Positions 7,429 through 27,080 of a stretch of 64,000 nucleotides of DNA are shown here, piece after piece. Origin of the DNA: an uncultured Anaerolineales bacterium. GTDB lineage: Bacteria; Planctomycetota; Phycisphaerae; FEN-1346. The number at the start of each line of letters is the position of its first letter. The stretch's first letter is position 1. A program made the position numbers and the translations under genes. The DNA is taken from the NCBI GenBank assembly GCA_964397995.1, contig CAYNLG010000010.1, positions 156 to 64,155 of the forward strand, written 5' to 3'. The notes below the pieces were generated by a model. That model was given only the letters and a program-made list of their open reading frames with translations, was not told where the DNA came from and ran no database searches.

Positions 7429-7522
7429 GTCACCAGCGTACCGGCCCGGGGCGTCCGTTGCCATGGGATTCGCCCGTGCCGGCCGCTTGCCGCCGACCTC
7501 CGGGGCTCGCATAATGAGGGCC

Positions 7523-7954: not shown

Positions 7955-8054
7955 GCCGGTTCATCGGCGCGACCTTCGAGCGTTGCCGGTGGCGGCCGCC
8001 CGTGCTAGAATGCCGCGCTTGGCCAGGGCCGCGCCGCCGCCCGGGAGACTCCCG

Positions 8055-10932: not shown

Positions 10933-11918
10933 CCCCGGACCGACCAGCGCCGGACCCGCGCCTGACCCTCGCTCTGCGGGCACGCCGCGCTGGCCATGTC
11001 CATCCGGCCGCCCTTGCCGAAGCTCTTGGGTGGACGCCGGAGGCGGTGGCCCAGGCCGTCGCAGCTCTGCCGGCCGCCGGCTTCGTCGTTGAGGACCACC
11101 CGCATCAGGGCCTGAGGTTGACGGAGGTCCCCGAAGCGCTTCGGGAGGACGAACTGGCCTGCGATCTGGGTCCGCGGCGGGTCGGGCGGCGCGTGCGTTG
11201 CGTCGAATTGGCCGCCAGCACGAATGATGTGGTTTGGGGCGTTCTGGGGACCGAAGGTTCCGCGGCCGACGGCCTGGCCGTCTTCGCGGAGCACCAGACG
11301 GCCGGCCGGGGGCGCCGCGGCAACCGGTGGCTGGCACCGCCCCATCAGGCGATCCTCGCGAGCGTCGCTCTCGCGGGCCAGGACGGCGGCCGTCAGGCCG
11401 TCGGGCCCGAACTGACGCGCGCCGCAGCCGTGGCGGCCGCGCGGGCCGTGGAAGACGTGGCAGGTCGCGACGTGGGACTCCGTTGGCCGAACGACCTGGT
11501 CCTGAATGACCGGAAGCTGGGAGGGGTACTGGTCGAAGCCCGGCCCGGCCTGGGCGCGGTGGTGGGCATCGGCCTCAACGTCAGCCAACGGGAGGCGGCG
11601 TTTCCGGCCGGCCTCCGACGGGTGGTCACCTCGCTTGCGATGGTTGGCGAGGAGACAGACCGGACGCTGCTCGCCCGAGCCCTGCTCATGCGCCTGGATG
11701 CGGCCGTAAGCGAGAAGATGACTTCTGTTTCGGCCGAAGCGTCCAGCCGGTGCCGGACGCTGGGGCGGCGCATCCGGGCCATCGAAGCGGGCCGCGAGGT
11801 CGCTGGAGAGGTCGTTGCCCTGGACCCCGACTATGCCTTGGTGGTGCGGACGGGGGAGGGGGTGCTGACACGGCTGGGTGCGATGACGACCCACGTGCTG
11901 GCTCCCGGGGTGTGGTGA
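10929..11918 (+). CDS. birA: biotin--[acetyl-CoA-carboxylase] ligase with N-terminal HTH
   Basis: STND, QTAGRGRRGNRW, RWPND and KLGGVL motifs. Confidence 0.9.
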   Translation: MTPDRPAPDPRLTLALRARRAGHVHPAALAEALGWTPEAVAQAVAALPAAGFVVEDHPHQGLRLTEVPEALREDELACDLGPRRVGRRVRCVELAASTNDVVWGVLGTEGSAADGLAVFAEHQTAGRGRRGNRWLAPPHQAILASVALAGQDGGRQAVGPELTRAAAVAAARAVEDVAGRDVGLRWPNDLVLNDRKLGGVLVEARPGLGAVVGIGLNVSQREAAFPAGLRRVVTSLAMVGEETDRTLLARALLMRLDAAVSEKMTSVSAEASSRCRTLGRRIRAIEAGREVAGEVVALDPDYALVVRTGEGVLTRLGAMTTHVLAPGVW

Positions 11919-12202
11919 CAGGAAACCGCGCGCTTCCGCCAAGGGGCGCGCAGCGCCAGCCGTTAGCGTCGCGGGCTTGCGAAACCGGCGTCTGCTCGGT
12001 GTAAGTCTATTTATTTCAGGGCTTTACGTCAGTTCTTGCCCGCTGGCGCCTTGCTCAGGCGTCATTCAGCGTTTGACGATAGAGCGACCGTGCGTAGAGT
12101 TCAGGTTGTGCTGCCCCTGCTCCTTAGCCAGATTACCCAAACCGCCCATGTTTGCGGCGTGCGCGTGAAGATACAGCAACTAGCCAAGATGGAGAAAATC
12201 AG

Positions 12203-12230
12203 TGAAGGCCCCCTGGCATTCAGCCGATAT
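12203..12230 (+). promoter_or_regulatory. putative sigma28 (FliA/WhiG)-type promoter
   Basis: TGAAG...GCCGATAT in intergenic DNA upstream of the major pilin. Confidence 0.45.
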
Positions 12231-12512
12231 GGCCTGTGAGCCGCTGGAGGGCTCCGGGAAATCGGGCCTTCGGCGGGTCGTCTTGGCAAGACGAACGGGC
12301 AGCAGACGAGCCCCCCGGCCCGTCGTACCGCTGCCGGACGCGCGAGACCCTCGAAGGAGGTGAGACCCAGACCGGGCTCGCCGGCGACGGTCCAAGGTCG
12401 CCTTCTCGCAGCCGGCCGCGTGGCGAGGCAGCGAGACGAAGGGCCGGGGTATCCAGGGGTAAACGAGAACGTACCAAGCCCTCAGGGCGCCAGTCGCACA
12501 AGGAGAGTAACG

Positions 12513-12995
12513 ATGAAACGCACGGTGACGAAAGGCTTCACGCTGGTCGAAATCCTGATCGTCGTGATCATCCTCGGCATTCTCGCGGCGATCGTGATCC
12601 CGCAGTTTACCGAGGCCTCGAGCGAGGCCCGGGTCAGCAACCTCATGACCAACCTTCAGACGATCCGCAGCCAGCTCCTGCTCTACAAGACCCAGCACCT
12701 CGAAGACTACCCGGATGACTTCGCGGACCAGATGACGCAGTACACGGACGTCAACGGCAACACCAACGCGACCCCCGACTCCGACTATCCGTACGGCCCG
12801 TATCTGCAGTCCGTGCCGGCCAACCCGATCTCGGGCAGCAACGTGGTGCGCGAGGTGACCGGTGCCAGCACGACCTTCTCGGCCCCGGAGGCCGACGCCG
12901 GTTGGTGGTTCAACAGCGACACCGGCGAGTTCCGCGCCGACCTCACCGACACGCACACGACGACTGACGGCAACACCCAGTTGAACGAACTGTAA
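12513..12995 (+). CDS. major pilin / GspG-like pseudopilin
   Basis: KG|FTLVEILIVVIILGILAAIVIP class III signal; GPYL motif; AAGGAG SD. Confidence 0.92.
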   Translation: MKRTVTKGFTLVEILIVVIILGILAAIVIPQFTEASSEARVSNLMTNLQTIRSQLLLYKTQHLEDYPDDFADQMTQYTDVNGNTNATPDSDYPYGPYLQSVPANPISGSNVVREVTGASTTFSAPEADAGWWFNSDTGEFRADLTDTHTTTDGNTQLNEL

Positions 12996-13024
12996 ACGCT
13001 GTGGGTGCGCAGCGGTGACCGCCA

Positions 13025-13098
13025 GCCTCTTCGCGTAGGGGCGAAGAGGCCAGGACCCGAGGGCCGGGACGCGTGGGCGTCCGGGCCCTCGGGCGTTT
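13025..13098 (+). terminator. tandem hairpins after pilin (terminator or mRNA stabiliser)
   Basis: 10-bp perfect stem 13025-13050; 16-bp stem with one mismatch 13056-13093 followed by CGTTT. Confidence 0.6.
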
Positions 13099-13129
13099 AC
13101 CGGCCGGGCTCACGGGCCGCTCGAATGGC

Positions 13130-13158
13130 TAACGCGGCCTTGCGGCCCGCGCCGATAT
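13130..13158 (+). promoter_or_regulatory. second putative sigma28-type promoter
   Basis: TAAC...GCCGATAT, same -10 octamer as 12223-12230. Confidence 0.4.
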
Positions 13159-13240
13159 ACCTCGTGAGGATACCGCCTGTCCGCATCGATTGCTCCCGGC
13201 TTGCCGCCTTCCGCGGCCGGCCGATGTAGGAGGCCGACCC

Positions 13241-13531
13241 GTGTCCGAACGCTACCTGAAACTCATCGCCCAAGGACTGATCCTCACCGTCATCATGCTC
13301 GGGCTCATCGCGGCCGCCCTGTGGTTGCGGCCCGGCCCCGTCGAGACCGCCGCCCAGGCCCGCACCATGTCCATCGCCAGCGAAGGCGGTCTCCAGGACC
13401 GCGGCAAACAGCGGCTGGAGATGATCGACGAACTGAAGGCGATCAACGAGAACCTGGCTGAGCTTCGCAAGGGCCTCGAGAACGGAACCTACAAGGTCCG
13501 CATCGAGGACCCTGAGAAGGCCAAGAAGTGA
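13241..13531 (+). CDS. small membrane-anchored coiled-coil hypothetical protein
   Basis: AGGAGG SD, GTG start, N-terminal TM helix. Confidence 0.7.
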   Translation: MSERYLKLIAQGLILTVIMLGLIAAALWLRPGPVETAAQARTMSIASEGGLQDRGKQRLEMIDELKAINENLAELRKGLENGTYKVRIEDPEKAKK

Positions 13532-13545
13532 TCCGGAGGCCGACC

Positions 13546-14073
13546 ATGCCCGCCATCACCCAACGTCGGCTGGCGCCCCCGCGCGGGTTTACGCTGGTCG
13601 AACTGATCATCGTCGTCCTGGTGCTGGCGATTGCGGCCGCCATCGTCGTTCCGGCCATCGGGACGGCGGCGGACGTCCAGGTCGTCAGTGCCGCACGCGT
13701 TCTGGCCTCCGACCTCGAGACCACCCGCAGCCTGGCTCTGACCACCCAGCAGCCGCACACGCTCGTCTTCTCGACCGATCGCGGCGCCTACAAAGTCGTG
13801 GTCGACTACGGGGGCGAACCGTACGCGAGCGTTGACGCGGTCGAACACCCCGTCCGCGCGGGCCGGGCCTACGAGACCACCGTCTCCGAGCAGCAGGGCA
13901 TGCGGTCGGTGGCCGTGACGAACGTCGACTTCGGCGGCGACGCGTACGTGACGTTCGATGCCCAGGGCGAACCGTTCGACTCCGGCAACGTGACGCTGCA
14001 GGCGGGAGACGTCCAGATGATCGTCTCGGTCGAGAGCCTGACGGGCATCGTGAACGTGACGCGGATCGACTGA
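13546..14073 (+). CDS. GspH/FimT-like minor (pseudo)pilin
   Basis: RG|FTLVELIIVVLVLAI signal; TFDAQGEP motif. Confidence 0.88.
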   Translation: MPAITQRRLAPPRGFTLVELIIVVLVLAIAAAIVVPAIGTAADVQVVSAARVLASDLETTRSLALTTQQPHTLVFSTDRGAYKVVVDYGGEPYASVDAVEHPVRAGRAYETTVSEQQGMRSVAVTNVDFGGDAYVTFDAQGEPFDSGNVTLQAGDVQMIVSVESLTGIVNVTRID

Positions 14074-14087
14074 CCGCGGGGACACGC

Positions 14088-15179
14088 ATGGCACACAGGC
14101 TGCCCATCGGACTCGACATCGGTACGACGGCTGTCCGGCTGATGCAGTTGGCCGGGTCGGGGCGACGGCTTCGCGTGCTGGACGCGGCCAAGGCCGCCAT
14201 CCCGCCCTACGCGGAGCGCGAGGCCGGTCCGCGCCGGGAGGCGGTGGTCGAGTGCGTGCGTGCGCTCCTCAAGGACCGGCACTTCCGCGGCCATGACGTG
14301 GTCCTCGCGCTCGACCCGGCCCAGGTCGCGATCCGCAGCATCCGCTTGCCCCCCACCCCCGAGGAAGAGCTGCCGACGGCCGTCAAGTGGGAGGTGCAGA
14401 ACAAGTTCCCGTTCGATATGGCCACGGCGGTGGTCCAGTACCTGCCGGCCGGACACGTCCGCCAGGGCGACCGGACGCTCCAGGAAGTCCTCGTCCTTGC
14501 CGTGCCGCGCCAGGACGTCGAGGCCCGCGTCCACATGGCCGCCGAAGCCGGCCTGCACGTGGTGAGCGTGGACGCGTCGCCGTGCGCCTTGTGGCGGACG
14601 TTCGAGCGGTACCGCCGCCGCGAAGAGGACCGGGACGTCGTGACGGCCATCGTCGACCTCGGGGCGCGGACGCAAGTCGTCCTGGCTCGGGGCCGCGACA
14701 TCGTGTTCGTCAAGACGATCCCGATCGGCGGCACACTGTTGAATCGCGCGGTGGCCGAGCGGCTCGAGTTGGCGGCGACCGAAGCCCAGGCGTTGCGGCG
14801 GCGGCTGGCGAAACGCCTCGACCGGGACGATCCCCAGGAGCCCGTCCGCCGGGCCGTGGCGGACGCCGTGCGGCCACACCTGGAGGACCTTGCCGCCGAG
14901 ATCGGCCTGTGTCTTCGGTACCACAGCGTGTCGTTCGGCGGGCCGCTGCCCGGTGAGATCATCTTCAGCGGCGGCGAGGCCCACGACCCCACGGTGCCGC
15001 AGACGTTGGCCGCCCGCCTGGACGTTCAGCCCACGGTGGCGGAGCCGCTGGCTGGGATCGAAGTGGGACGCGTCGGCCCGGGCGTGGACCGCCGCGGGGC
15101 GACGAGCGAGTGGACGGTGGCTCTGGGCTTGTCGCTGAAAGGCCTGAGCCTGGCCGAACCCCTCCAGGCGTGTGCCTGA
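14088..15179 (+). CDS. pilM: type IV pilus assembly protein PilM
   Basis: actin-like IGLDIG, VDLGA, IPIGG, FSGG and ALGLSL motifs. Confidence 0.88.
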   Translation: MAHRLPIGLDIGTTAVRLMQLAGSGRRLRVLDAAKAAIPPYAEREAGPRREAVVECVRALLKDRHFRGHDVVLALDPAQVAIRSIRLPPTPEEELPTAVKWEVQNKFPFDMATAVVQYLPAGHVRQGDRTLQEVLVLAVPRQDVEARVHMAAEAGLHVVSVDASPCALWRTFERYRRREEDRDVVTAIVDLGARTQVVLARGRDIVFVKTIPIGGTLLNRAVAERLELAATEAQALRRRLAKRLDRDDPQEPVRRAVADAVRPHLEDLAAEIGLCLRYHSVSFGGPLPGEIIFSGGEAHDPTVPQTLAARLDVQPTVAEPLAGIEVGRVGPGVDRRGATSEWTVALGLSLKGLSLAEPLQACA

Positions 15180-15205
15180 GAGGGCATCAGGGAGAGGGAA
15201 TCAGC

Positions 15206-15802
15206 GTGCGTGAGCTGGAGTTCCTGCCTCCGGACTACCTCCGGGCGCGGTTCGCCCGTCGCCTGGGATTCCTGCGGTCCTGGCTCCTGGTGGCCATGGG
15301 GTTGGCGATGGTCCTGTGGAGCCTCCAGATGGGCCTGTGCGTGCGCGACGCCGAGGCGAAGCTGCGTGGTATCCGGGGACTGGACTCGACCGCGTCTCAG
15401 GACGTGGTGAAAGTGGAACGCCTGCAGGCCGAGGTCCGCCGGTTCAGTGCCCGCCTGGCGGCCCTTCGCGACGCTGCCGACGGTGTCGCCACGAGCGATG
15501 TGCTGGCCGACGTGGTCGAACGCCTGTCGGACGCCACAGGGCTGACCCGATTGACGGTGACTCGGCACGAGGAGGGCCCGGGCGCCGTGGTGCGCCTCTG
15601 GGGCTGGGGCAGCGGCCACGCTGACGTGGGTCGCGTTCTGGGGGCTATCGAGGCCTCCCCTTATCTCGTCGGTGCGGTCCTGCGCGAGTCGCATGCCGAC
15701 ACGGCCGGGGGCGGCCCTCGGCGGGTCTTCCTGATAGAAGCCACCGCGATGCCGGCGGCAGATGCGGTGGCCCGAAAAGGCGAGCCGGAGGAGGTCCCGT
15801 GA
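15206..15802 (+). CDS. PilN-like protein
   Basis: N-terminal LEFLP (INLLP-like), TM, coiled coil; follows pilM. Confidence 0.7.
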   Translation: MRELEFLPPDYLRARFARRLGFLRSWLLVAMGLAMVLWSLQMGLCVRDAEAKLRGIRGLDSTASQDVVKVERLQAEVRRFSARLAALRDAADGVATSDVLADVVERLSDATGLTRLTVTRHEEGPGAVVRLWGWGSGHADVGRVLGAIEASPYLVGAVLRESHADTAGGGPRRVFLIEATAMPAADAVARKGEPEEVP

Positions 15803-16434
15803 CCACTTCGCCCGGCACCCCGGCGCCGCCTCCGCCTGCCCCCAAGCGGCCCCCGCTTGCGATCGACCGGCACCAACTCCTGATCCTGGTCCTGGGCTCG
15901 ATCATGGCCGGCTCGTTCGTCCTGCTTGTCTTCTGGCCCAAGCAGCGCCGGCTGCACGTGCTGGGCTCGGCCGTGAAGCAGGAGCGGGAGCGTGTCGAGC
16001 GGAAGCTGATGACGAGCCAGACGGGCCTGTACATGACGGCCCGGATTCCCGAGTTGCGCAAGGCCCAGGGGACGCTCGACCGGCGCCTCCCGGCCGACCC
16101 GGAGGTGGCAGTCCTGCTCCAGGCCGTGTCGGCCTGTTTCGAGGCGGAGCCCGCCGTACGCTACGACGTCGAGCAGGCGGCCTCCCGCACCGATGGCCCG
16201 GCGCCGGCCGTGCCCCTCCGCCTTCGTGCGGCCGGGCCGTTCCCGGCGGTGTACCGGTGCCTGGCCTCGGTCGAACGGCTGGAGCGGCTGTGCCGATTTC
16301 GCCGAACACAAGTCCAGAGAGAACCCGACGGTACAGTGACGGCCGAAGCGGAGGTTCTGGCCTACTTCCTGCCCGATGGCGGGGCGGAGGAGACCGGACC
16401 GCGCGCCGACGCCGCGGAAGGCCCCGGCACGTGA
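15799..16434 (+). CDS. PilO-like protein
   Basis: TM, coiled coil, RLPADPEV, GPFPAVYRCL; position after PilN-like gene. Confidence 0.7.
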   Translation: MTTSPGTPAPPPPAPKRPPLAIDRHQLLILVLGSIMAGSFVLLVFWPKQRRLHVLGSAVKQERERVERKLMTSQTGLYMTARIPELRKAQGTLDRRLPADPEVAVLLQAVSACFEAEPAVRYDVEQAASRTDGPAPAVPLRLRAAGPFPAVYRCLASVERLERLCRFRRTQVQREPDGTVTAEAEVLAYFLPDGGAEETGPRADAAEGPGT

Positions 16435-17078
16435 CGCGTTCGACGGATGGCACGGAGACGACGCCCCGCGCCCCCGGACCCATCAGCGGGGTCGTGGCAT
16501 GGCTGGTAAGCCGGCCGCGCGGCTGGTGGGCGGGGGGACATGGCCGGCCGGTCCGCGTCACCGTAACGGTGGTGTTGATCCTGGCAGCGCTGGGGGCATG
16601 GGCCTTGGCCTTGGTGCAACCGTGGCTGCGGCAGCGGGCAGACGCCGCCGTGGTGCCGTTTCCGGCGCTGCGGTTTGACGCGCGTCGCCTGTGCGAGCCC
16701 ACGGACGACCTGATGGACGCTCTGGCCCCGCCGGCGGCCGCCGCCAAGGCGATCCGCCGCGATCCGTTCGCCACGGCGCAGGCCGGCCCACCGCCATGTT
16801 GGCCGGCCGAGGCGGGGGTGGCCTCCTGTGCGGTTGCCGACCGGGCTGGCGACCCGTGCGGCGAGGCGGCCACCACGACCTTGGCCGTCATGGAGCGGGC
16901 TCGCGGGTTGAGGCTGGACATGACCGTCGAGACCGACGCGGGCGGACGTTGGGCGGTCATCGACGGACGACGCTACCGGGAAGGTGACGAGGTGGCCGGC
17001 ATGGCCATTCTCGAGATACGAACGGGGAGGGTGACCCTGCGGCAATCAGGCGTGACCTGTTTGTTGCGGGTCGAATAG
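16431..17078 (+). CDS. PilP/GspB-like membrane protein
   Basis: TM, RRDPF motif, C-terminal AVIDGRRYREGDEV beta domain; coupled GTGA start. Confidence 0.55.
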   Translation: MTRSTDGTETTPRAPGPISGVVAWLVSRPRGWWAGGHGRPVRVTVTVVLILAALGAWALALVQPWLRQRADAAVVPFPALRFDARRLCEPTDDLMDALAPPAAAAKAIRRDPFATAQAGPPPCWPAEAGVASCAVADRAGDPCGEAATTTLAVMERARGLRLDMTVETDAGGRWAVIDGRRYREGDEVAGMAILEIRTGRVTLRQSGVTCLLRVE

Positions 17079-17089
17079 GGAGAGGGTTC

Positions 17090-19264
17090 ATGAAAGCCTG
17101 CCACTGCGCTGACCCCTACCGGCGCGGCGTCGTGCTGCTCGCCGTCGCGGGAGCGCTTCTGCTGATGTTGACCCCCCCGGCCCGCGCGGCCGGTGCGGCC
17201 GGAGGTGCGGGACTGTTCGACCCCGGCGGCGGAGATGACCCCCTGGAGGTCGATGCCCCGGAGCAGGACGCCGCCGAGGCGCTTGAGGTCCGGCCAGAGG
17301 ACACGGCGCCGCCTCTCACGACCGTCCTCTCCGACGAGGGGGGCATCGAGATACACGCCAAGAACGAGGACCTGGTCAAGGTGCTGGAGCTGATCTCCCG
17401 GCTCCAGGAGATCAACATCGTGGCCAGCAAGCAGGTCACCGGCAAGGTGACGGCCGACCTGTACAACGTGACGCTGGCGGAGGCCCTGGACGCCCTGGCC
17501 CGGGCGAACAACCTCCGCTGGGTCCGCGAGGGCGACTTCATTTACGTCCACACGCCGGAGGAGTTGAAACAGCTCCGGATGGACGAGGACCGGCTTGTCA
17601 CCGAGGTCTATCACCTGAACTACCTGACGGCCGAGGACGCGATCAAGCTGATCCAACCGGCCCTGTCGGAATTGGCCGTGGTGGCCGAGACGTCGCCCGC
17701 CGAAAGCGGCATCGCCTCCGGGGGCGAGGAGGTCGGCGGCAACAGTTACGGACTGGCCGACGCCGTTGTCGTCCGTGACTTCCCCGAGAACCACGAGAAG
17801 GTGGCGGCCATCCTCGAGAAGATGGACCGGCGGCCGCGCCAGGTCCTGATCGAGGCGACCATCCTCCAGGTCGAGTTGACCGACAACACCAGCCTCGGCA
17901 TCAATTTCAACACGCTGGCCGGTGTCAATTTTCGCGACCTCCAGGCCCTGGCGCCGCCGGCGCCGGCTTCGCCGTCAACCGACCCCACCACCGTGATGGG
18001 CGACATCTCCGAGACCGCCCGGGCCAGCCTGCAGCCCTGGGGCACCACGTACACGCGCGGCTTCGCCACCCCCGGTGACGGCCTGAACATCGGCATCATG
18101 ACCAACAACGTCTCGGTCTTCATCCAGGCCGTCGAAGAAGTCACCGACGCCAACGTCATCAGCAACCCGAAGGTGCTCGCCCTGAACAAGCAGCGGGCCG
18201 AGGTTATCGTCGGCGACCGGCTCGGGTACCGGACCACGCAGGTGACCGAGACGACCGCGATCGAAACGGTCGAGTTCCTCGACACGGGCACACAGTTAAT
18301 CTTCAGGCCGTACATCAGCGACGACGGCTACATCCGCATGGAGGTCCACCCCGAGGTGTCCTCCGCGGTCCTGACGGGGCCCGCCGACAATCCGCTGCCC
18401 CAGGAGACGACGGCCGAGGTCACCTGCAACGTCATGGTCCGCGACGGCGAGACGATCGTTATCGGCGGCTTGTTTGACGAGAACGTCACCTCCACGAAGA
18501 CCGGCGTACCCTTCCTGCACAACCTGCCACTCGTCGGCCCGCTGTTCCGGTCACACGGCGAAGACACCGAACGGCGCGAGTACATCGTCCTGCTGACCCC
18601 CCATATCATCCAGGAGGACCAGGCCTACGCGATGGGGCGTCAGCTCAAGGACGACATCAGCCGCCGCGGCTTCGGTCTGCGGGAAGGCTTCTCCGTGTTC
18701 ACTCGCGAGCGGATGACGGTCGGCTACCTCCAGGAGGCCGAGGCCGCCTGGGAACGGTACCAGGAGACGGGCAAGCGGGGGGACCTGGACGGGGCGTGGT
18801 GGAACGCAAACCTGGCCCTGAACGTGGCCCCGAACAACATGGCGGCGCTGCGGCTCAAGGACCGCCTGATCATCGAGCGAACCGGCAAGGCCGAACTGCC
18901 GCGTCACTGGACCCTCTGGGACAGCATCCAACTCCACATGAACTCCGTCGGCCTGCTGGGCCATACGCATCCCGCGGTCGAGTGGCGCACGGGCGGGTGC
19001 GACGTGGTCATCGGGCGGCCGAGGCCCTGTGACGAAGACTCCCTGCCCAGGCACGGAATGCCCGGCGAGCCGTTGCCGGAGCACGGCCTGGCCCCCGCCT
19101 TCGAAAAGCCCGCTACCATCGAGACCGAGCCCCAACCGCCCGCGGCGCCGGACGCCGAAGCGACCGGGGAGGCCGTGGGCGAGCCGTTCGACGGCGGCGC
19201 CGACGCACCCGGCCGGTACATTGGCGAGATCGAAGCGGAGGAGGTGACCGATGTGGTGGACTAA
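17090..19264 (+). CDS. secretin (PilQ/GspD family) with C-terminal extension
   Basis: signal peptide, STN/N domains, QVLIEATI, VRDGETIVIGGL, GVPFLHNLPLVGPLF and LLTPHII. Confidence 0.92.
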   Translation: MKACHCADPYRRGVVLLAVAGALLLMLTPPARAAGAAGGAGLFDPGGGDDPLEVDAPEQDAAEALEVRPEDTAPPLTTVLSDEGGIEIHAKNEDLVKVLELISRLQEINIVASKQVTGKVTADLYNVTLAEALDALARANNLRWVREGDFIYVHTPEELKQLRMDEDRLVTEVYHLNYLTAEDAIKLIQPALSELAVVAETSPAESGIASGGEEVGGNSYGLADAVVVRDFPENHEKVAAILEKMDRRPRQVLIEATILQVELTDNTSLGINFNTLAGVNFRDLQALAPPAPASPSTDPTTVMGDISETARASLQPWGTTYTRGFATPGDGLNIGIMTNNVSVFIQAVEEVTDANVISNPKVLALNKQRAEVIVGDRLGYRTTQVTETTAIETVEFLDTGTQLIFRPYISDDGYIRMEVHPEVSSAVLTGPADNPLPQETTAEVTCNVMVRDGETIVIGGLFDENVTSTKTGVPFLHNLPLVGPLFRSHGEDTERREYIVLLTPHIIQEDQAYAMGRQLKDDISRRGFGLREGFSVFTRERMTVGYLQEAEAAWERYQETGKRGDLDGAWWNANLALNVAPNNMAALRLKDRLIIERTGKAELPRHWTLWDSIQLHMNSVGLLGHTHPAVEWRTGGCDVVIGRPRPCDEDSLPRHGMPGEPLPEHGLAPAFEKPATIETEPQPPAAPDAEATGEAVGEPFDGGADAPGRYIGEIEAEEVTDVVD

Positions 19265-20375
19265 GGGTCTGCTCCTTGTCGCGTGCGCGGCCTGTCTGGC
19301 CGCGGCGGCCGGCTGTACCTCCTTCATGGACGAGAAACGTGCCGAGGCCAACGAGCGCTGGCAGAAGAACCGGGCGGAGATCGTCGTCCGCTTGGCGGAA
19401 GGGTGCTTCAGGCGGGGTGAGATGAAGAAGGCCCGGCAGCATATCGCGGAGGCCCTCAACGAGCAGTTGGCCTATGCCCCCTTGTACGTATTGGCTGCAA
19501 GGCTGACGGCCGAGGACGGCGACCTGGAGCGGGCCCGCGAGTATGCCCAGACGGCCCGGTCCGTCGATCCCGAATACGCCGAGGGGCACTACGTTCTCGG
19601 GACCGTCGAGCAGACGCTGGGACACCGCGACAAGGCCCTTGCCGGCTACCGCGAGGCCGCGGCCCTGGATCCGAAGCGGGCGGCCTATGCCCTGGCCGTC
19701 TCCGAACTCCTCGTCTCCGAGGGCCGACGTGATGAGGCCGTGGCATTTCTGGAGGAGGCGGTCGGGCGTCTCCCCGGCCGGCCTGACCTCCATGCCGGCT
19801 ACGGCGACGTGCTGGCTCTGACCGGGCGGCATCGCGAGGCGGCCGCGGCGTACCGGACGGCACGGCGTCTCGATCCGAACGACCCGGCGTACGTGGCCGG
19901 TCTGGCGACGGTCCTCTACTTCAGCGGCGACTACGCCGGGGCCGAGACCGAACTGGCCGCCCTCTCACGGCTCGGGGACGCCGATAACGCCGCGTGGCTT
20001 TCCCAGATGCGCGGCGACTGTGCCCTGGCGCGGCGTCGGCCGGAGGATGCCCGTGCCCACTACGAACAGGCCCTCGAGGTCGACCCCGGTTGTCTGGGCG
20101 CGACGTTGGCCTTGGCCCACCTCGACGTGGCGGGCGGCCGGAGTGACCAGGCCGTTGCCCGGTTGGAGACGGTCCTGGACCGCGAACCGGCCCAGGGCGA
20201 TGCCAACGCCCTCATGGGCTATGCCCTGGTAAGTGCGGGCCGCGCGGCCGAGGCCGTACCGCACCTGCGGCGGGCCCTGGGCGATCCGACCTTCGAGCAG
20301 CGGGCGGTGGCCGAGGCGCTGCTTGCCCGCGCTCAGGCCGCGGCGCCGCCGGATGCCGGAGGCGACGCCCCATGA
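19251..20375 (+). CDS. TPR-repeat lipoprotein (pilotin-like)
   Basis: AAGC lipobox and multiple TPR repeats; overlaps the secretin stop. Confidence 0.8.
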   Translation: MWWTKGLLLVACAACLAAAAGCTSFMDEKRAEANERWQKNRAEIVVRLAEGCFRRGEMKKARQHIAEALNEQLAYAPLYVLAARLTAEDGDLERAREYAQTARSVDPEYAEGHYVLGTVEQTLGHRDKALAGYREAAALDPKRAAYALAVSELLVSEGRRDEAVAFLEEAVGRLPGRPDLHAGYGDVLALTGRHREAAAAYRTARRLDPNDPAYVAGLATVLYFSGDYAGAETELAALSRLGDADNAAWLSQMRGDCALARRRPEDARAHYEQALEVDPGCLGATLALAHLDVAGGRSDQAVARLETVLDREPAQGDANALMGYALVSAGRAAEAVPHLRRALGDPTFEQRAVAEALLARAQAAAPPDAGGDAP

Positions 20376-21817
20376 TCGAACTGCGTCGCGCCGCCGTCGT
20401 CATCCTGCTGTTTCTCGGGGTGGGGGCGGGCCTGCACCTCCTGATGGACCCGTTCGCCGAGGGGAGCCAGCCGCCCCTCGTCAAGACGATGGTGCTGGCG
20501 TGCGGCCTGACGCTGTGTGTGCTGGGGATCATCGGCGGGGTGCTGCTGGCGCGGCTGCAGAAGGAGCGGATCGACTCGGTCGCGGTCCATCTGAACACGA
20601 TGGTCGATCGCGGTCGCATGGGCCTGATGATCAGCGACAACGAGTCCGACGCCCTCGGCCGCCTCGGGCACGCCGTCAACCGCTATCTCCGCTTCGTCAA
20701 GGACGAGGTCGAGCAGTCCCGGATGGCCGTCAAGGAACGCCAGATCAAGATGAAGGTGCTCCAGGCTGAGAAGCGGCACATCGAGGCCGTCATCAAGGCC
20801 ATCAGCGACGGCGTCATCGTGACCGACGCGTTCGGCGACCTGGTTTTGGCGAATGCCGCGGCCGAGGGGATTTTCGACTTTACGTTCGACGCGGCCGAGA
20901 GGCGCCCCGTCGAGGAGTTCATCGAGGACGCGGAGTTCCTGGCCCTGCTGACCGGGATGCGCGACGAGGGGGTCCACTCCCCCCACCGCACCGCCGAGTG
21001 GACCTCCGCCGCCGGCGACCGGCCGCGCACCTACCGCGTCATCCTGAGTGCCGTCCTCGAGGGCCGTGCCCGCGACCGGATCAGCGGCGTGGTGGCCGTC
21101 CTGCACGACGTGACGCGCGAGAAGGAGATCGCGCGCATGAAGAGCGACTTCGTCTCGAACGTGTCGCACGAGTTGAAGGCCCCGCTGGCAAGCATTCGGG
21201 CCTACGTCGAGATGCTCCAGGACGGCGAGGTCGAGAACGAAGCCGAAGCCCGCGAATACCTGAGCACCATCGCCGGCGAGACCGACCGCCTGAACCGCCT
21301 CATCGAGAACATCCTCAATCTCAGCCGCCTGGAGTCCGGCCTCGTCCCGGTCAATAAGGCGGACTTGGCGGTGACCGAGGTGCTGAGCGACGTGGCGGAC
21401 GTGATCTCGCCGCAGGCGTCGCGCAAGGGGATCGACCTCGCGGTTGACCTGGCGCCCGTCTTCTTCCGCGTGCACGCCGACCGCGACATGCTGTACCAGT
21501 CGGTGCTGAATGTGGCCTCCAACGCCGTCAAGTACACCCCGGAGGGCGGACGCATCCGCGTCGCCACCTACCTGAAGGACGGGGCCGTGGTGGTCGAGGT
21601 TGCCGACACGGGCCACGGCATCCCGCCCGAAGAGGTCGAGAAGGTCTTCGAGAAGTTCTACCGTGCCCGTCACAGCGGCCAGGCCGCCCCGGGGACCGGG
21701 CTGGGCCTGCCTCTGGTCAAGCACGTTATCGAACACATCCACGGTGGCTGGGTGGCCGTGGAGAGCCAGGTGGACCGGGGTACGACGTTCCGCCTCGGGT
21801 TGCCGGCCGTGCGATAG
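20372..21817 (+). CDS. membrane PAS sensor histidine kinase
   Basis: 2 TM, PAS, SHELKAPL H-box, NAVKY, DTGHGI and GTGLGL. Confidence 0.93.
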   Translation: MIELRRAAVVILLFLGVGAGLHLLMDPFAEGSQPPLVKTMVLACGLTLCVLGIIGGVLLARLQKERIDSVAVHLNTMVDRGRMGLMISDNESDALGRLGHAVNRYLRFVKDEVEQSRMAVKERQIKMKVLQAEKRHIEAVIKAISDGVIVTDAFGDLVLANAAAEGIFDFTFDAAERRPVEEFIEDAEFLALLTGMRDEGVHSPHRTAEWTSAAGDRPRTYRVILSAVLEGRARDRISGVVAVLHDVTREKEIARMKSDFVSNVSHELKAPLASIRAYVEMLQDGEVENEAEAREYLSTIAGETDRLNRLIENILNLSRLESGLVPVNKADLAVTEVLSDVADVISPQASRKGIDLAVDLAPVFFRVHADRDMLYQSVLNVASNAVKYTPEGGRIRVATYLKDGAVVVEVADTGHGIPPEEVEKVFEKFYRARHSGQAAPGTGLGLPLVKHVIEHIHGGWVAVESQVDRGTTFRLGLPAVR

Positions 21818-21830
21818 GGAAGGAGCGGAC

Positions 21831-22205
21831 ATGCCCCGCATTCTGGTGGCCGACGACGAGGCGCCGATCGCCCGCGTCGTCGCCAAGAAACTCGAGAACG
21901 CCGGCTACGACGTCGAGGTTGCCCGCGACGGCCAGGAGGCCTATGAACGGGCCGTCGCGTCGCCGCCAGATTTCCTGGTTACCGACCTCCAGATGCCGGG
22001 CCTCAGCGGCTTGGAGGTCTGTGCCCGGTTGGCTGCCGAACTCGAGACGCCCGTGCCGGCGGTCCTGTTGACCGCCAAGGGGTTCGAGGTCGACCCAAGC
22101 GTGGTCGAACGTCTGCCCATACGGCGGATCATGACGAAGCCGTTCAGCCCGCGGGAACTCCTGGCGGTCGTGCAGGCGGCCTTGGCCCAGACCGCTTCGA
22201 CGTGA
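21831..22205 (+). CDS. stand-alone response regulator receiver
   Basis: ADDE, TDLQMPG, LTA, KPF; no output domain. Confidence 0.92.
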   Translation: MPRILVADDEAPIARVVAKKLENAGYDVEVARDGQEAYERAVASPPDFLVTDLQMPGLSGLEVCARLAAELETPVPAVLLTAKGFEVDPSVVERLPIRRIMTKPFSPRELLAVVQAALAQTAST

Positions 22206-22230
22206 CATCCGTGACCCGAAGGGGAGTGCC

Positions 22231-23733
22231 ATGACCGGTCAACTCAGCCGTCCCCTACCGGTGACCGAACGGCAGGCGCTGGTGACGCTGGCGGGCCTGA
22301 TCCGCGACCGTGCCCGGGTGCCGCTGGTACTGGTGCGCGGCGACGAGGTGATCGCCCAGCCGGCCGGGGGGGCGCCGCCGCACGTGCTCGCGCTCGCCGG
22401 AGCGGCGTGGGCGTCCGAAGAGGAGCAGGTCGAGACCGGCGATGGCCGCGTCGCGGCCGCCTGGCCGGTCCGGCTCCGCGGCCGCCTCGTCCTGGTCGGC
22501 GCCGCCGAGGTGACGGCCTCTGAGGCGGACGTCGGCCGCCAGCTCCTCGTGGCGGTGGCAGCGGCGGTGCAGGCCCAGGTCGATGGCCTCGATGCCCGCG
22601 GCGAGGCGGAGGCGCTCTCGGAGGCCCTGACCCAGAACTTCGAGGAACTCACCCTCCTCCACAACCTCGGCGAAGTCCTCACGGTCACCCAGTCTGCCCC
22701 GGAACTCCTTCGCCGCGCCTGCCGCGAGCTCGTCGAGACCGTCGACGCCGTCGGCGTGGCCGCCTACCTGCCCCCCGGCGACGAGGAGCCCCGGCGCATC
22801 GTGGCGGTCGGCGCCTTGCCGATCGCAAAGCCCGAGCTGCCGGCCCTTGTCGAGCGGCTGCTCGGGGACCTCGGCCACGAACGGACCGTGGTCATCAACA
22901 ACCACTGTGCGGACGACCCCGCCTTGGAGGCCATGGCCCCTGGCGTGGAGCGTGTCGTCCTGGCGCCGCTGCCGATGGGCCGGCGCCGGCGAGGCGCCTT
23001 GGTGGCGATCAACCGAAACGGCCTCGAGTTCGGCAGCCCGGACGCCAAGCTCGTCCGGTCGGTCGCCAACTCCGTCGGCATGTTCCTGGAAAACCACCGG
23101 CTCTACACTGACCTGCAGGCCCTGATGCTCGAACTGGTCCGGGCCCTTGTCTCGAGCATCGACGCGAAGGACCCATACACGTGCGGCCACAGCGAGCGCG
23201 TCGCCCTGCTCAGCCGCGAGACCGCGCGGCTCCTGGGCCTGACGGACCGGGAGGTCGAGTGGGCCTACCTGGCGGGCCTGCTGCACGATATTGGCAAGAT
23301 CGGCACGCCCGAGGCCATCCTCCAGAAACCGGCCCGTCTGACCGACGCCGAGTATGACGTCATCAAGCGTCACCCGGCCGTGGGCTACCGCATCCTGAAG
23401 GGCGTCAAGCGGCTCGAGCCGATCCGGGACGCCGTCCGGCACCACCACGAGCGGATGGACGGGACCGGCTATCCGGACGGGCTGCGCGGCGAGGAGATCC
23501 CGCTACTGGCGCGGATCACCGGCCTTGCCGACGCCTTCGACGCGATGACCAGCAACCGCCCGTACCGGCCGAGGCTCCCGATGGAGAAGGTGCGGTGCGA
23601 GATTGAGCGCAACGTGGGCCGCCAGTTCGATGCCCGCGCCGCCGACGCCCTCCTGGCGCTCGACGTCGAACGGCTCATGGGTCAGGTCACCAGCCAGCCA
23701 GCCCAGGTCGACGCCGACTTGGTCCGTGCGTGA
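22231..23733 (+). CDS. GAF + HD-GYP cyclic-di-GMP phosphodiesterase
   Basis: GHSERV, LHDIGK, HHHERMDGTGYPDGL and RPYR intact. Confidence 0.92.
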   Translation: MTGQLSRPLPVTERQALVTLAGLIRDRARVPLVLVRGDEVIAQPAGGAPPHVLALAGAAWASEEEQVETGDGRVAAAWPVRLRGRLVLVGAAEVTASEADVGRQLLVAVAAAVQAQVDGLDARGEAEALSEALTQNFEELTLLHNLGEVLTVTQSAPELLRRACRELVETVDAVGVAAYLPPGDEEPRRIVAVGALPIAKPELPALVERLLGDLGHERTVVINNHCADDPALEAMAPGVERVVLAPLPMGRRRRGALVAINRNGLEFGSPDAKLVRSVANSVGMFLENHRLYTDLQALMLELVRALVSSIDAKDPYTCGHSERVALLSRETARLLGLTDREVEWAYLAGLLHDIGKIGTPEAILQKPARLTDAEYDVIKRHPAVGYRILKGVKRLEPIRDAVRHHHERMDGTGYPDGLRGEEIPLLARITGLADAFDAMTSNRPYRPRLPMEKVRCEIERNVGRQFDARAADALLALDVERLMGQVTSQPAQVDADLVRA

Positions 23734-23741
23734 GAGGTGCC

Positions 23742-24077
23742 ATGCCGACGGTCGCGGACGTTTTCGGCAACCTGACGGTCCTCACCGTGGACCCGGCCCT
23801 CGACCGGCGGGAGAGCGAGGCCTTTCGGGCCCGCGTCACCGACCAGATCCAGGCCGGCCGCCGCTGGTTCGTCCTGGACGGAAGCCACTGCACACGGCTG
23901 GACAGCCGGGGCCTCGAGGACCTCCTCTGGCTCCAGGAACAGGTGGAGGCCGTGGGCGGGGTGGTCAAGATCGCCGGCCTCCGTGGCACCTGCTGCACCA
24001 TCTTCCGGCTCGTGCGGTTCGACCGGAAGTTCGAGGTCTTCGACGGCGTTCCGGAAGCCGTGAGCCAGTTCGCCTGA
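23742..24077 (+). CDS. STAS domain anti-sigma-factor antagonist
   Basis: VLDGSHCTRLDSRGL with the SpoIIAA-type phosphoacceptor Ser. Confidence 0.85.
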   Translation: MPTVADVFGNLTVLTVDPALDRRESEAFRARVTDQIQAGRRWFVLDGSHCTRLDSRGLEDLLWLQEQVEAVGGVVKIAGLRGTCCTIFRLVRFDRKFEVFDGVPEAVSQFA

Positions 24078-24087
24078 GGGTCCTGGT

Positions 24088-25836
24088 ATGCCGCCCACGA
24101 CATCCAGCTCGGCCCGCGTCCGGCTGGGCGACCTGCTGGTGGCCCACGAGGTCATCACCCCGGAGCAACTGCAGCACGCGCTCGGCATCCAGCGCGACGG
24201 CCAGCAGGAACGGCTCCTCGGCGAAATCCTCATCGACCTCGACTACGCCACCGACGACCAGGTGCTGGCGGCCGTGGCCGAGGCGTGCGGTGTGCCGTTC
24301 GCACGGCTGACCCCGGTGCTGGTCGATCCGGCCGTCCGTAGCGTTCTGCCGGAGTCCTTCATCCAAAAGCACGGCGTTCTTCCGCTCTTCAAGATTCGCG
24401 ACACCCTGACGGTAGCCGTCTCCGAGCCCGCCAATGTCTTCCTGGTGGACGAGATCGCTCGTGTGGCTGGCACGAACGTCCAAGTGGCGGCCGCCACGGG
24501 AGACAACATCTACGAGATGCTCGAGCAGACCCGGACCGACGAGGCGCCCCGCGCCACCCAAGGCGAAGCCGAGTTCGCCGTCACCGACGAACTACTCCAG
24601 CCCGAGGACTACGATTCGGCCTACGGCAACTGGCCACCCGTCAAGGTCGCCCGCCTGTTGCTGCGCGAAGCCGTCCGGAGCGGGGCCTCGGCCATTCACC
24701 TGGAACCCGAGGAGAAGGTTCTCCGTGTCCGCTTCCGCATCGACGGCGTGCTGCACGTCGTCATGCGCCCTCCGATGCGCGTCGCAACCGGCCTGACGGC
24801 GGCCCTTCGCGAGCTCATGGGTGTCGATGCCGACGAGATGCCCTGGGGCCGGCCGATCGACGCCCCCGTCCGGGTCCAGGAGCATGCCGTCCAGCTCCAC
24901 ATGCTTTCCCTCCATGGGGCGTACGGGCCGCGCACCGTCATCCGCTTGGTCCGCGAGGACGAGGCCCATCGCAACCTCGAGAAGCTCGGCGCCGACTTCA
25001 AGCTCCTCGACGCCTATCGGCACCTCGTCCACGCCACGCGCGGGCTCGTGGTCGTGGCCGGTCCCCGCGAGGCGGGCACCACGACCACCCTCTACGGGAC
25101 GGTGCTCGACCTGGATCCGGCGCGGCTGAACGTGTGTACGTGCGAGGCGGCGATCGCCTTCCCGCTCTCCGGCGTGAATCAGTTCTCGCCGGCAACCCTC
25201 GGCGCGCCGAACCCCGCGGCGGCGGTGGAGGCCATTCTGGCCCAGCGTCCGGACGTGCTCATGCTTGACGGGACCGCCGATCCCGGCACTGGCGCAATGC
25301 TGGCCCGTGCGGTCCGGGACGGGTGCTTCGTCCTCATGCATGTGCCCGCCGCCGACGCCGCCGAAGCCATGGCGGGCCTGCGGCACCTCCTGCCGCCGGA
25401 CGCTGTGGCGCGCCATCTGAGGGGCGTGCTGGCCCAGCGCCTCGTCCGCACGGTGTGCCCGGACTGCCAGAGCAGCTACGAGCCGTCGGGACGCCAGAAG
25501 AGCCGCCTTGTCGAAACCTTCGGCGGGGACGGCCGCTTCGTCAAGGGCCGCGGCTGCCCCGCCTGCCGCCGCACCGGCTTCCGCGGACGCATCGGCCTGT
25601 TTGAGCTTGTGCCCAACACGGGCAACGTGGCGGCGGCGCTGTCAGGTGGCGCCGACGAGGACATGCTGCGCGACGCCCTGGCGCACGACGGATGCCCGAC
25701 ACTCTGGCAGGACGGGGTGAACAAGGTTCGCGCCGGCATCACGTCGCCGGACGAGGTCATCGAGGTGTTGGCCGCCTGCCCGCGACCGGGGCAGGGCGGT
25801 TCGGATGAATCAGAGCCGGCCGGTTGGCCGCGCTAG
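24088..25836 (+). CDS. MshEN-domain PilB/GspE homolog with degenerate ATPase motifs
   Basis: RLGDLL..QLQHALGIQ, IHLEP, RFRIDGVL, AQRLVR, CxxC..CxxC; Walker A GPREAGTT. Confidence 0.88.
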   Translation: MPPTTSSSARVRLGDLLVAHEVITPEQLQHALGIQRDGQQERLLGEILIDLDYATDDQVLAAVAEACGVPFARLTPVLVDPAVRSVLPESFIQKHGVLPLFKIRDTLTVAVSEPANVFLVDEIARVAGTNVQVAAATGDNIYEMLEQTRTDEAPRATQGEAEFAVTDELLQPEDYDSAYGNWPPVKVARLLLREAVRSGASAIHLEPEEKVLRVRFRIDGVLHVVMRPPMRVATGLTAALRELMGVDADEMPWGRPIDAPVRVQEHAVQLHMLSLHGAYGPRTVIRLVREDEAHRNLEKLGADFKLLDAYRHLVHATRGLVVVAGPREAGTTTTLYGTVLDLDPARLNVCTCEAAIAFPLSGVNQFSPATLGAPNPAAAVEAILAQRPDVLMLDGTADPGTGAMLARAVRDGCFVLMHVPAADAAEAMAGLRHLLPPDAVARHLRGVLAQRLVRTVCPDCQSSYEPSGRQKSRLVETFGGDGRFVKGRGCPACRRTGFRGRIGLFELVPNTGNVAAALSGGADEDMLRDALAHDGCPTLWQDGVNKVRAGITSPDEVIEVLAACPRPGQGGSDESEPAGWPR

Positions 25837-26612
25837 GGTTTCCAGAAGTCGCCCTTCGCGGGGTCGGCCTTCCAGCCGCCCTTATCGTTGTTCCCGCCGC
25901 CGTTCCGATTGTTGTCCTTCTTGTCGTTGTCCTTTTTGTCGTCGTCCTTTTTCGGCGACAGGTGATTCTGGCACTCCTTCATGCTGCCGAGGAGGCTCTC
26001 ATGCTCCTTGGCGGTCCGCTGGTCCTCGGGGATGAGGAGGACCGCCCGCTGGTAGGCGGCCAGGGCGCTGCGGTACTCGGCGATGCCCCTGTAGAAGTCA
26101 CCGATGCGGACGTAGATGCCCCGGTGGTACTTGCCGACGCGGTCGGCCAGGTGGTCGTACCGGGCCTGGTAGCCGTCGCCCTCGGGCAGGCGCTCCAGGT
26201 CGCGGGACAGGTCCTGGACGGCCCGCTCCACGCGCTGGTACCGCGTGGCGTGGGCCTGCAGTTGCTTGGCGCAGAGTTCGATGACCTGCCGGTACTCGCT
26301 CATGCCTTCTTTGAGCTTGCCCTCGCGGAAGCTCTTCTCCAGGTTCTTCCGTTCCTTGATGTCTCCGATGGCCTTGGCCTGGGCCTTGAGGATCTGCATG
26401 TTCAGCTTGAACTCGGCCTGCTGGACCTCCTTGAGCTGCTCCTCGACGGCCGCCATCTGCTTCTCAAAGCGGATGCGCATGGCGTCCAGGCGCGGGTTCG
26501 AGGCCTCGTCGTTGCTCTCCTCCGCACGCACCGCCGCCATCGGCAGCGCGGGCACGAGGAACAGGGCGACCAAAAGGGCCGCTCCCTGGCGGCAGGGGCG
26601 CATCGCGTTCAT
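25833..26612 (-). CDS. exported coiled-coil/TPR hypothetical protein
   Basis: AAGGA SD, signal peptide, one TPR, K/D/N low-complexity tail. Confidence 0.7.
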   Translation of the reverse strand: MNAMRPCRQGAALLVALFLVPALPMAAVRAEESNDEASNPRLDAMRIRFEKQMAAVEEQLKEVQQAEFKLNMQILKAQAKAIGDIKERKNLEKSFREGKLKEGMSEYRQVIELCAKQLQAHATRYQRVERAVQDLSRDLERLPEGDGYQARYDHLADRVGKYHRGIYVRIGDFYRGIAEYRSALAAYQRAVLLIPEDQRTAKEHESLLGSMKECQNHLSPKKDDDKKDNDKKDNNRNGGGNNDKGGWKADPAKGDFWKP

Positions 26613-26690
26613 GGCGTTCCTTTCCGGGCCGACCTTCGGCCGGCTCTGGGCCACTGTCATCGCGTTCTGCGCGACCGGTCGCGGCGCGGC

Positions 26691-27002
26691 TCAGGCGTCG
26701 ATGCCGGTCACGCGAACCGTCAGGTAATGCTGCCTGTGCCCGATATGCCGCCGCGAGTTCTTGCGGCGACGCACCTGGACCACCTCCAGCTTCGGGCCCT
26801 TGGCCGGGCCAAGCACCTCGGCGGTGACGGTCGCCCCGTCGAGGTTCGGCTTGCCGACGCGGACACCGTCGTCGTCGCCCACCAGCAGCACCCGATCAAA
26901 CGTCACCGTGCTGCCCGGCTCGCCGCCGCGCAGATCGACCTGAAGGGTCTGGCCCTCTTCGACCCGCATCTGGCGCCCGCTGTCGTCGATAATCGCGTAC
27001 AT
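26691..27002 (-). CDS. rplU: 50S ribosomal protein L21
   Basis: MYAII..GRQMRV and GHRQ motifs. Confidence 0.96.
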   Translation of the reverse strand: MYAIIDDSGRQMRVEEGQTLQVDLRGGEPGSTVTFDRVLLVGDDDGVRVGKPNLDGATVTAEVLGPAKGPKLEVVQVRRRKNSRRHIGHRQHYLTVRVTGIDA

Positions 27003-27080
27003 GCCCGTCTCCGTGTGCTTCCGGTCCCAGGTTCAGACCGGGGAGCGTAGCAGGCGGGTGTGGCCAACGCAAGGGCTTAG

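Follow-up and report, generated by a model that had tools for sequence, protein, structure and literature searches.

A 64,000-nucleotide stretch of DNA (the window), corresponding to bases 156-64155 of contig C10 (CAYNLG010000010.1) in the genome assembly of an uncultured bacterium of the class Phycisphaerae, carries a 14-gene operon for a type IVa-like pilus (positions 12513-25836, plus strand), the last gene of which encodes a degenerate homologue of PilB, the pilus extension ATPase. In current understanding, a type IV filament cannot do without its extension ATPase, which acts as the engine. Comparison with relatives shows that the locus is the Phycisphaerae version of a type IVa-like pilus operon of Planctomycetota, the ancestral 3' end of which reads, as reconstructed from the present-day loci, histidine kinase - receiver - cyclic di-GMP (c-di-GMP) enzyme - STAS - PilB - PilC. 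It also shows that, in the window's family alone, pilC was deleted from the locus and PilB lost all the residues for ATP binding and hydrolysis. On the grounds of conserved sequence and a modelled complex, we hold it somewhat better than an even prospect that the dead PilB acts as a non-catalytic receptor or adaptor, which takes c-di-GMP and STAS inputs and gates a pilus powered in trans. The assembly comprises 3.81 Mb in 170 contigs, is 92% complete and has a G+C content of about 70%. Domain calls were made by Pfam and NCBIfam profile searches, scored against the family cut-offs.

Conservation of the operon and loss of its motor

Regarding the distribution of the terminal ATPase, 170 genomes in a class sample of 301 gave a match at E <= 1e-90. 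The orthologue was clear in all 21 other genomes of the window's family, so that the gene is present in 22/22 family genomes at 55-60% identity, while the orthologues in the sister family and in other families of the class were weaker (33-39% identity) and all other matches in the class sample reached at most 39%. Twenty-eight loci with long flanks were compared (nine from the family, four from the sister family, ten from other families of the class and five from other Planctomycetota classes), and the operon genes detected in them were colinear in 28/28. The conservation of gene order, on which an earlier reading of the window from its letters alone (hereafter the first-pass annotation) depended, is thus borne out. 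The secretin, receiver and STAS genes were each detected in 27 loci, PilM, the tetratricopeptide repeat (TPR) protein and the kinase in 26, the GspH-like pilin in 24, the HD-GYP protein in 23 (all 23 loci of the class) and the major pilin in 22. Regarding the gaps, the side from the pilin to PilO was not detected in L037, L057 gave only kinase-receiver-STAS-PilB, and the genes not detected elsewhere were the kinase and receiver in L038, the kinase in L032 and the STAS gene in L034. In the other Planctomycetota classes, a membrane (GAF-)GGDEF protein replaces the HD-GYP protein between the receiver and STAS genes (3/3 by Pfam), with GGEEF in L058 and a degenerate site in L056 and L060; the slot is empty in L057. 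At one and the same operon position, an enzyme type that degrades c-di-GMP and one that makes it have been swapped between Phycisphaerae and the other classes.

The state of the 3' end follows the family boundary. The ATPase motifs were canonical in 11/11 non-family loci of the first batch and degenerate in 10/10 family members; the Walker A lysine is missing from another nine family sequences as well, giving 19/19, and the additional non-family orthologues (8 + 37) were all intact, giving 56/56, as was one match from Pirellulales. A PilC-like gene follows the ATPase in 54/56 non-family loci (19/19 + 35/37), with a PilT-like gene standing between the two in L035, L058, L059 and four loci of the later set; the gene downstream of the ATPase in L030, for instance, is a T2SSF protein (203.9 bits). 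Downstream of the family's ATPases, a PilC match was found in 0/10 loci. Considering that intact motors and PilC are near-universal outside the family and absent from the loci within it, the motorless state is derived and the combination family-specific, and by this comparison of motifs and synteny the loss of the motor is a derived feature of the window's family, not a trait of the class.

Motifs and domains of the degenerate ATPase

Motifs in the window were compared with those of intact PilB/GspE genes of the same genome. The Walker A motif of the pseudo-ATPase reads GPREAGTTTT versus GPTGSGK(S/T)TT, with loss of the lysine, and this position is occupied by T/A/V/I/L in 19/19 family sequences. 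The Asp box is TCEAAIAF versus T(V)EDPIE (EDPVE in the intact PilB/GspE of the same genome), the Walker B motif is LMLDGTAD versus MVGEIRD, with loss of the glutamate, and the His box is VLMHVPAADA versus V.STLHTNDA. In the N2 domain, the arginine-finger motif ERRLPQDG has been lost and both arginine fingers are gone. The operon therefore holds no ATPase with intact motifs, in agreement with the first-pass annotation. The zinc tetracysteine CPDC...CPAC (two CxxC pairs) is retained in all sequences compared. A column-retention test, restricted to alignment columns with conservation of 90% or more among 17 active orthologues, gave a similar division between domains: the family keeps 8/9 columns in MshEN_N, 15/16 in MshEN_C and 16/20 in the C-terminal domain, versus 20/54 in N2 and 29/73 in the ATPase core.

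Orthology, tempo and selection

A tree of 41 ATPases was built by quick search, with SH-aLRT as the only branch support. In the first version, a long-branch degenerate paralogue from contig C6 joined the family stem, and the tree was rebuilt without the C6 and C1 sequences. The 24 operon ATPases of the class then fall on one side of a single branch (SH-aLRT 96.3) and the family clade has a support of 100; PilB' paralogues from a second locus of the family, described below, are separate from the operon ATPases. By this tree the dead ATPase is orthologous to the PilB that belongs to the operon, and is not the paralogue that the first-pass annotation had taken it for. The family stem measures 1.48 substitutions per site versus 0.075 for the median inner branch, and, measured from the class ancestor, family members lie at a mean distance of 1.92 and the remaining sequences at 0.41-0.48. 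ATPase identity is correspondingly 37.6% between the family and its sister family, versus 58.4% between the sister family and other class families, whereas the STAS protein shows no such drop (43.4 vs 33.7%).

Nei-Gojobori dN/dS ratios were calculated for within-genus pairs; where a pair includes the window, dS is close to 1 and the ratio less dependable. The dead ATPase gave 0.11, 0.24, 0.23 and 0.20, and the comparison genes gave 0.11-0.36 (PilM), 0.22-0.34 (secretin), 0.11-0.22 (kinase) and 0.22-0.32 (birA), the values of the dead ATPase being comparable with those of PilM and the secretin. Relaxed selection was not seen in any operon gene among these pairs, the structural genes included, and the locus is thus not in the decaying state that the first-pass annotation had named as a danger to its reading. 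At the level of aligned codons and columns, a burst of change limited to N2 and the ATPase core is shown, followed by purifying selection with the MshEN and zinc domains kept.

The putative c-di-GMP module and the predicted STAS contact

The first-pass annotation had noted a c-di-GMP-binding type of N-terminal module, and the assignment stands at the level of profiles: the pseudo-ATPase scores 47.6 bits against NF053729, the NCBIfam model of the MshE-related c-di-GMP motif (cut-off 38), and an active orthologue 67.7 bits. The published MshEN motif is an N-terminal tandem 24-residue module (PMC5013675), spanning 53 residues, the first motif of which fits residues 12-35 of the pseudo-ATPase except for the turn glycine. 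A strict regular expression for MshEN matches only some of the sequences.

The STAS protein has four residues, D58, S59, L62 and R96, that are invariant in 27 sequences. S59 is presumably the phosphorylation site, as in SpoIIAA. A complex of STAS and pseudo-ATPase, modelled from a 27-row alignment for each protein, gave an ipSAE of 0.72 (0.73, 0.72, 0.72), while the best of three controls gave 0.00. The runs agree in 100% of contacts, the partner pLDDT is 84 and the pseudo-ATPase fold is modelled at pLDDT 80-81. The score mark is reached by 58/80 solved complexes and 2/110 mismatched pairs, counts that apply roughly to alignments of our own making. The predicted interface joins ATPase residues 70-134 (MshEN_C) with STAS residues 26, 55-66 and 87-96, and all four invariant STAS residues lie in or beside it. 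On the ATPase side, six residues (P70, D80, L100, F101, V103 and Q132) show little or no variation across 29 STAS-linked PilBs, dead and active. They are not kept in nine PilB' paralogues without a STAS neighbour (F101 -> D/R/G) or in the C100 PilB. The model and this pattern of conservation support docking of the Asp-Ser face of STAS on the MshEN_C subdomain of the ATPase, with the binding itself being a prediction. The relatives of the STAS protein in the PDB are anti-sigma antagonists, and the complexes listed for them are with anti-sigma kinases, not secretion ATPases.

A third locus, L049 (G032, 6656-14893), lies in a complete Phycisphaerae genome and has the order kinase - STAS - PilB - PilC ... 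pilin - GspH-like. The six residues named above are kept in its ATPase, a third STAS-linked PilB, and the STAS-PilB pairing thus recurs within one genome.

Motors and platforms elsewhere in the genome

The first-pass annotation had stated that the locus lacks a platform protein, a prepilin peptidase and PilT and had proposed that it borrows its motor. No such gene stands in the operon; moreover, T2SSF, Peptidase_A24 and a second T2SSE were not found by Pfam on the window's contig. Candidate motor genes exist elsewhere: the window's genome holds 17 T2SSE matches, with an intact Walker A in PilB/GspE-type genes on contigs C100, C120, C1 and C141 and PilT-like genes on C100 and C42. C24, C35, C120 and C48 carry platform genes, C9 and C48 carry Peptidase_A24 genes, and there are four other secretins; none of the unlinked motor, platform and peptidase genes is on the window's contig. 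Most genomes of the family contain a second locus, PilM'-(N')-O'-PilB'-PilT'-PilC', with an intact PilB paralogue. The best family matches to the PilC of the sister family's operon (33-37%) sit in this second locus, within about 8 kb of which a secretin or pilin was not found. The arrangement PilM'-PilB'-PilT'-PilC' occurs outside the window's family too.

Two further PilB/GspE-like genes of the genome, on C42 (L010 163-2664 and upstream) and C6 (189-1790), have degenerate Walker A motifs, SPKNGGLTTT and GPPRSGRTTT, respectively; the former stands after an intact PilT-like gene and before a CvpA-like membrane protein. Low-scoring T2SSE genes also occur beside PilT-like genes in G012, G022 and G005, and, together with those on C42 and C6, these suggest that dead ATPases may recur in the order. 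On C35, a 4539-residue open frame contains a secretin domain (21967-22467, 182.6 bits); an ATPase fragment and a platform gene stand at the beginning of this contig.

Proposed role of the dead PilB and alternatives

In the mechanism that we favour, the N-terminal four-helix module of the pseudo-ATPase would read c-di-GMP, the local level of which would be set by the GAF-HD-GYP enzyme under the control of the kinase and receiver. The MshEN_C subdomain would be the docking site for the Asp-Ser face of STAS in the unphosphorylated form. The bound state would then either allow or prevent the building of the pilus by an active PilB/PilC motor whose genes lie elsewhere, which in most family genomes may be that of the second locus PilM'-N'-O'-PilB'-PilT'-PilC'. 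A parallel is offered by inactive PilT, which still lets PilU work.

Several observations weigh against this mechanism. MshEN motif 2 deviates in the whole clade (LLG, no final Gln) from the published consensus, and the turn glycine of motif 1 is a glutamate in the window's ATPase; the module is therefore a putative c-di-GMP receptor. The score of the STAS-ATPase complex expresses the confidence of a model and is not a measurement. A serine kinase or PP2C phosphatase for STAS was not found in the locus, so that, of the partner-switching cassette of the first-pass annotation, the locus holds the STAS member only; elsewhere in the genome, there are one clear RsbW-type HATPase_c_2 kinase gene (C26) and four SpoIIE-type PP2C genes. 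A clear copy of the second locus was not found in the window's assembly, 92% complete as it is, the best matches being 39.5% for PilB and 29% for PilC. That a signal could pass from the dead PilB to another motor is something that we infer by analogy. Finally, two loci of one other family, L080 (G287) and L082 (G323), have an intact ATPase followed by other genes, without an adjacent PilC, showing that loss of PilC and catalytic death are separable. These loci represent a possible intermediate state. Of all non-family sequences, the L080 ATPase, with the motif variants GPAGSGKS and GEIDGA, matches the dead ATPase best (39%).

Five alternatives to gating in trans deserve discussion. The dead PilB may have left pilus control altogether, with c-di-GMP and STAS signalling serving another output (e.g., polysaccharide) and the gene staying in the operon for co-expression only. 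The conserved part of the protein is indeed its putative N-terminal receptor domain, and Myxococcus PilB is reported as an exopolysaccharide signalling protein independent of assembly (PMC5544727). However, in 10/10 family loci translation of the dead PilB stays coupled to that of the pilus genes and of STAS, and the protein keeps its C-terminal zinc domain, for which a pure receptor has no obvious role; this alternative is thus considered unlikely. It is also quite unlikely, we believe, that a dynamic pilus is no longer built, the secretin, alignment proteins and pilins having a static or other role and the dead ATPase forming a structural plug at the base. In its favour, active PilB and PilC have both gone from the locus in 10/10 family loci, but conservation of the major pilin ranks among the highest in the operon (64-77% identity in nine family loci; dN/dS 0.09-0.31), which fits continued assembly, and the genome has motors and platforms at other sites.

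Residual binding or hydrolysis of ATP through non-canonical residues, with an unlinked platform, would agree with the confidently modelled fold and the T2SSE score of 190 bits. It strikes us as improbable, since five sets of motifs were lost together, including the Walker A lysine, the Walker B glutamate and the arginine fingers. The reading of the first-pass annotation, namely a hybrid filament system designed without a motor of its own and read by an inactive ATPase paralogue, describes the window itself correctly, but the intact PilB and adjoining PilC outside the family, together with the orthology of the dead copy, contradict an architecture built motorless from the start, and we regard it as very improbable. 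Taken as a whole, the earlier interpretation is partly supported. A decaying locus or pseudogene, to which the lost catalytic motifs and pilC might point, is scarcely tenable in the face of a frame open in 19/19 family ATPases, presence throughout the family and no relaxed operon gene.

Gating of a pilus powered in trans therefore stays our preferred reading. A broader proposal, which we advance tentatively and regard as rather doubtful in its full extent, is that STAS is a direct, phosphorylation-gated cofactor of PilB across Planctomycetota, with its Asp-Ser face docked on MshEN_C, joining two-component and c-di-GMP inputs at the motor, and that one Phycisphaerae family split regulation from engine, producing a first natural pseudo-PilB that licenses a trans motor. 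If a dead PilB is indeed under selection throughout a family for such a role, the regulatory or docking roles of PilB would be naturally separable from its motor role, a possibility already suggested by laboratory mutants of PilT. Likewise STAS, conserved next to PilB together with a kinase, a receiver and an enzyme of c-di-GMP turnover (of HD-GYP type in Phycisphaerae and of GGDEF type in other classes), would represent a new class of PilB cofactor, and PilB a novel type of target for partner-switching proteins. The active and dead orthologues constitute a natural matched pair for experiments.

Relation to known systems

The type IVa pilus (PilA, minor pilins, PilMNOPQ, PilF/PilW/Tgl, PilB, PilC) shares with the present locus a separate PilM, putative PilN/O/P-like proteins, a secretin, a TPR lipoprotein and a PilB-type ATPase, and the ancestral operon likewise ends in PilB-PilC. 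It differs in that the pilins here score best as GspG/GspH and a four-gene signalling cassette lies between the TPR gene and PilB; in the window's family, moreover, PilB is dead, PilC is absent and PilD and PilT are unlinked. The mixture of type II secretion-like pilins with a type IVa-like PilM and ATPase had been recognized in the first-pass annotation and is upheld here by GspG and GspH scores of 58.8 and 36.4 bits, both below their cut-offs. Pseudomonas HsbA-HsbD is a partner-switching system.

MshE of Vibrio cholerae has a comparable N-terminal tandem 24-residue module, but MshE is an active motor tuned by c-di-GMP, whereas here the putative receptor domain, deviating in motif 2, is carried on a catalytically dead body (PMC5013675). 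Walker mutants of PilT work through PilU, indicating that an inactive hexameric ATPase can be needed as a docking partner, and the PilB plus TfpB of Acinetobacter show that two extension ATPases can serve one pilus (PMC11656802). The inactive PilTs are, however, laboratory mutants of a retraction motor, whereas the present protein is natural, of the extension type and fixed in a whole family. In the Xanthomonas PilB-PilZ-FimX system, a c-di-GMP signal also reaches the pilus via proteins that dock on the N-terminal region of PilB (PMC8389850); here the predicted partner is STAS, with an HD-GYP or GGDEF enzyme, a kinase and a receiver in the same operon. Partner switching by HmpU/V/W controls pilus-dependent hormogonium motility in Nostoc (PMC8256260). 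SpoIIAA/RsbV and HmpU/V/W share with the present system a single-domain STAS with conserved Asp-Ser, and the predicted contact runs through this same face. In contrast to these systems, no kinase or PP2C is found in the locus, and the predicted target is a secretion-ATPase domain instead of an anti-sigma kinase.

In the passages searched of a 2024 review of PilB cofactors (PMC11656802), STAS, HD-GYP and a natural inactive PilB were not found. A described natural pseudo-PilB or STAS-PilB pairing was not found in open-access main text, and a prior description is possible; neither PilB as a target of STAS or partner switching nor a degenerate Walker A in GspE/PilB appeared among the matches listed in the open-access literature.

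Gene inventory and chromosomal neighbourhood

The 14 genes and their order, as listed in the first-pass annotation, were confirmed with their coordinates by Pfam and NCBIfam, although some of the calls are weak (Table 1). The PilN-, PilO- and PilP/GspB-like calls rest on position, and those of the PilN-like and small membrane proteins on position and conservation in relatives. By tblastn, the small membrane protein has a match in 9/9 family loci and L055, and the PilN-like protein in 14/28 loci; the first listed start of the latter overlaps PilM by 70 nt and the real start is probably later. The start of the PilP/GspB-like gene was inferred from a 4-nt overlap. At the level of NCBIfam, the major pilin scores 58.8 bits against TIGR01710 GspG (cut-off 88.85), the minor pilin 36.4 bits against GspH (below its cut-off), and the TPR protein 101.8 bits against type_IV_pilW (cut-off 154). 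The subtype scores of the secretin are nearly tied (GspD 224, PilQ 220.9 bits), both below cut-off. Among components of type II secretion, GspC, GspL, GspM and GspI/J/K were not recovered, the only hit being GspC_delta at 21.1 bits versus a cut-off of 150. In the GAF-HD-GYP protein, the HDIGK and HHERMDGTGYP (HHExxDGxGYP) residues are intact.

Table 1. Genes of the pilus operon and the convergent gene at its 3' end (window coordinates; scores in bits)
Feature	Coordinates	Strand	Evidence
Major pilin, GspG-like, prepilin-type signal KGFTLVEILIVV	12513..12995	+	N_methyl 27.7
Small single-pass membrane protein, coiled-coil tail	13190..13531	+	No Pfam match; true start uncertain
GspH/FimT-like minor pilin	13528..14073	+	GspH 33.9, N_methyl 29.6 (Pfam)
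PilM, actin-like alignment protein	14088..15179	+	PilM_2 108.1
PilN-like bitopic protein	15110..15802	+	Position, transmembrane (TM) segment; no family match
PilO-like	15799..16434	+	PilO 19.7, below cut-off 22
PilP/GspB-C-terminal-like, TM and T2SSB-type C-terminus	16431..17078	+	T2SSB 26.7, below cut-off 28.4
Secretin, STN and N domains	17090..19264	+	Secretin 142.1, STN, Secretin_N
TPR lipoprotein, PilF/PilW/Tgl-like candidate pilotin	19251..20375	+	TPR families; lipobox AAGC
Membrane PAS histidine kinase	20372..21817	+	HisKA 78.9, HATPase_c 97.4, PAS 27.8; H-box SHELKAPL intact
Stand-alone receiver	21831..22205	+	Response_reg 73.9; acceptor Asp in VTDLQMP; true frame starts 21831
GAF and HD-GYP, candidate c-di-GMP phosphodiesterase	22231..23733	+	HD_5 131.2, GAF_2 30
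Single-domain STAS protein	23730..24077	+	STAS 41.3; invariant D58-S59
Pseudo-ATPase, MshEN and PilB/GspE fold, catalytic motifs lost	24088..25836	+	T2SSE 190.4, MshEN 57.9
Convergent gene at operon end, where relatives have pilC	25833..26660	-	Tail-to-tail 4-nt overlap with the ATPase

From the small membrane protein gene through the ATPase gene, each junction measures at most 25 nt, with 4-nt overlaps at five of them, and the pilin gene is flanked by 594 nt on its 5' side and 194 nt on its 3' side. A scan for sigma-70 promoters and terminators gave one promoter-like site (0.9 expected) and one terminator-like site (5.0 expected). A 408-residue open reading frame on the plus strand (25824-27050), which is of PilC size and overlaps the stop codon of the ATPase gene, was considered as a degenerate PilC platform and rejected: it has no Pfam match and is of low complexity, and its tblastn matches mirror the conserved convergent gene, marking it as a shadow frame of high-G+C DNA. 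A homologue of this convergent gene sits downstream of the ATPase in seven family loci. Upstream of the pilus operon, the window carries uvrB, nadC and birA (7983-11918). These three genes hold the same place in other loci of the family and in the sister family (L023, L026-L028, L030-L032, L040), so that conservation of the chromosomal surroundings extends across the order.

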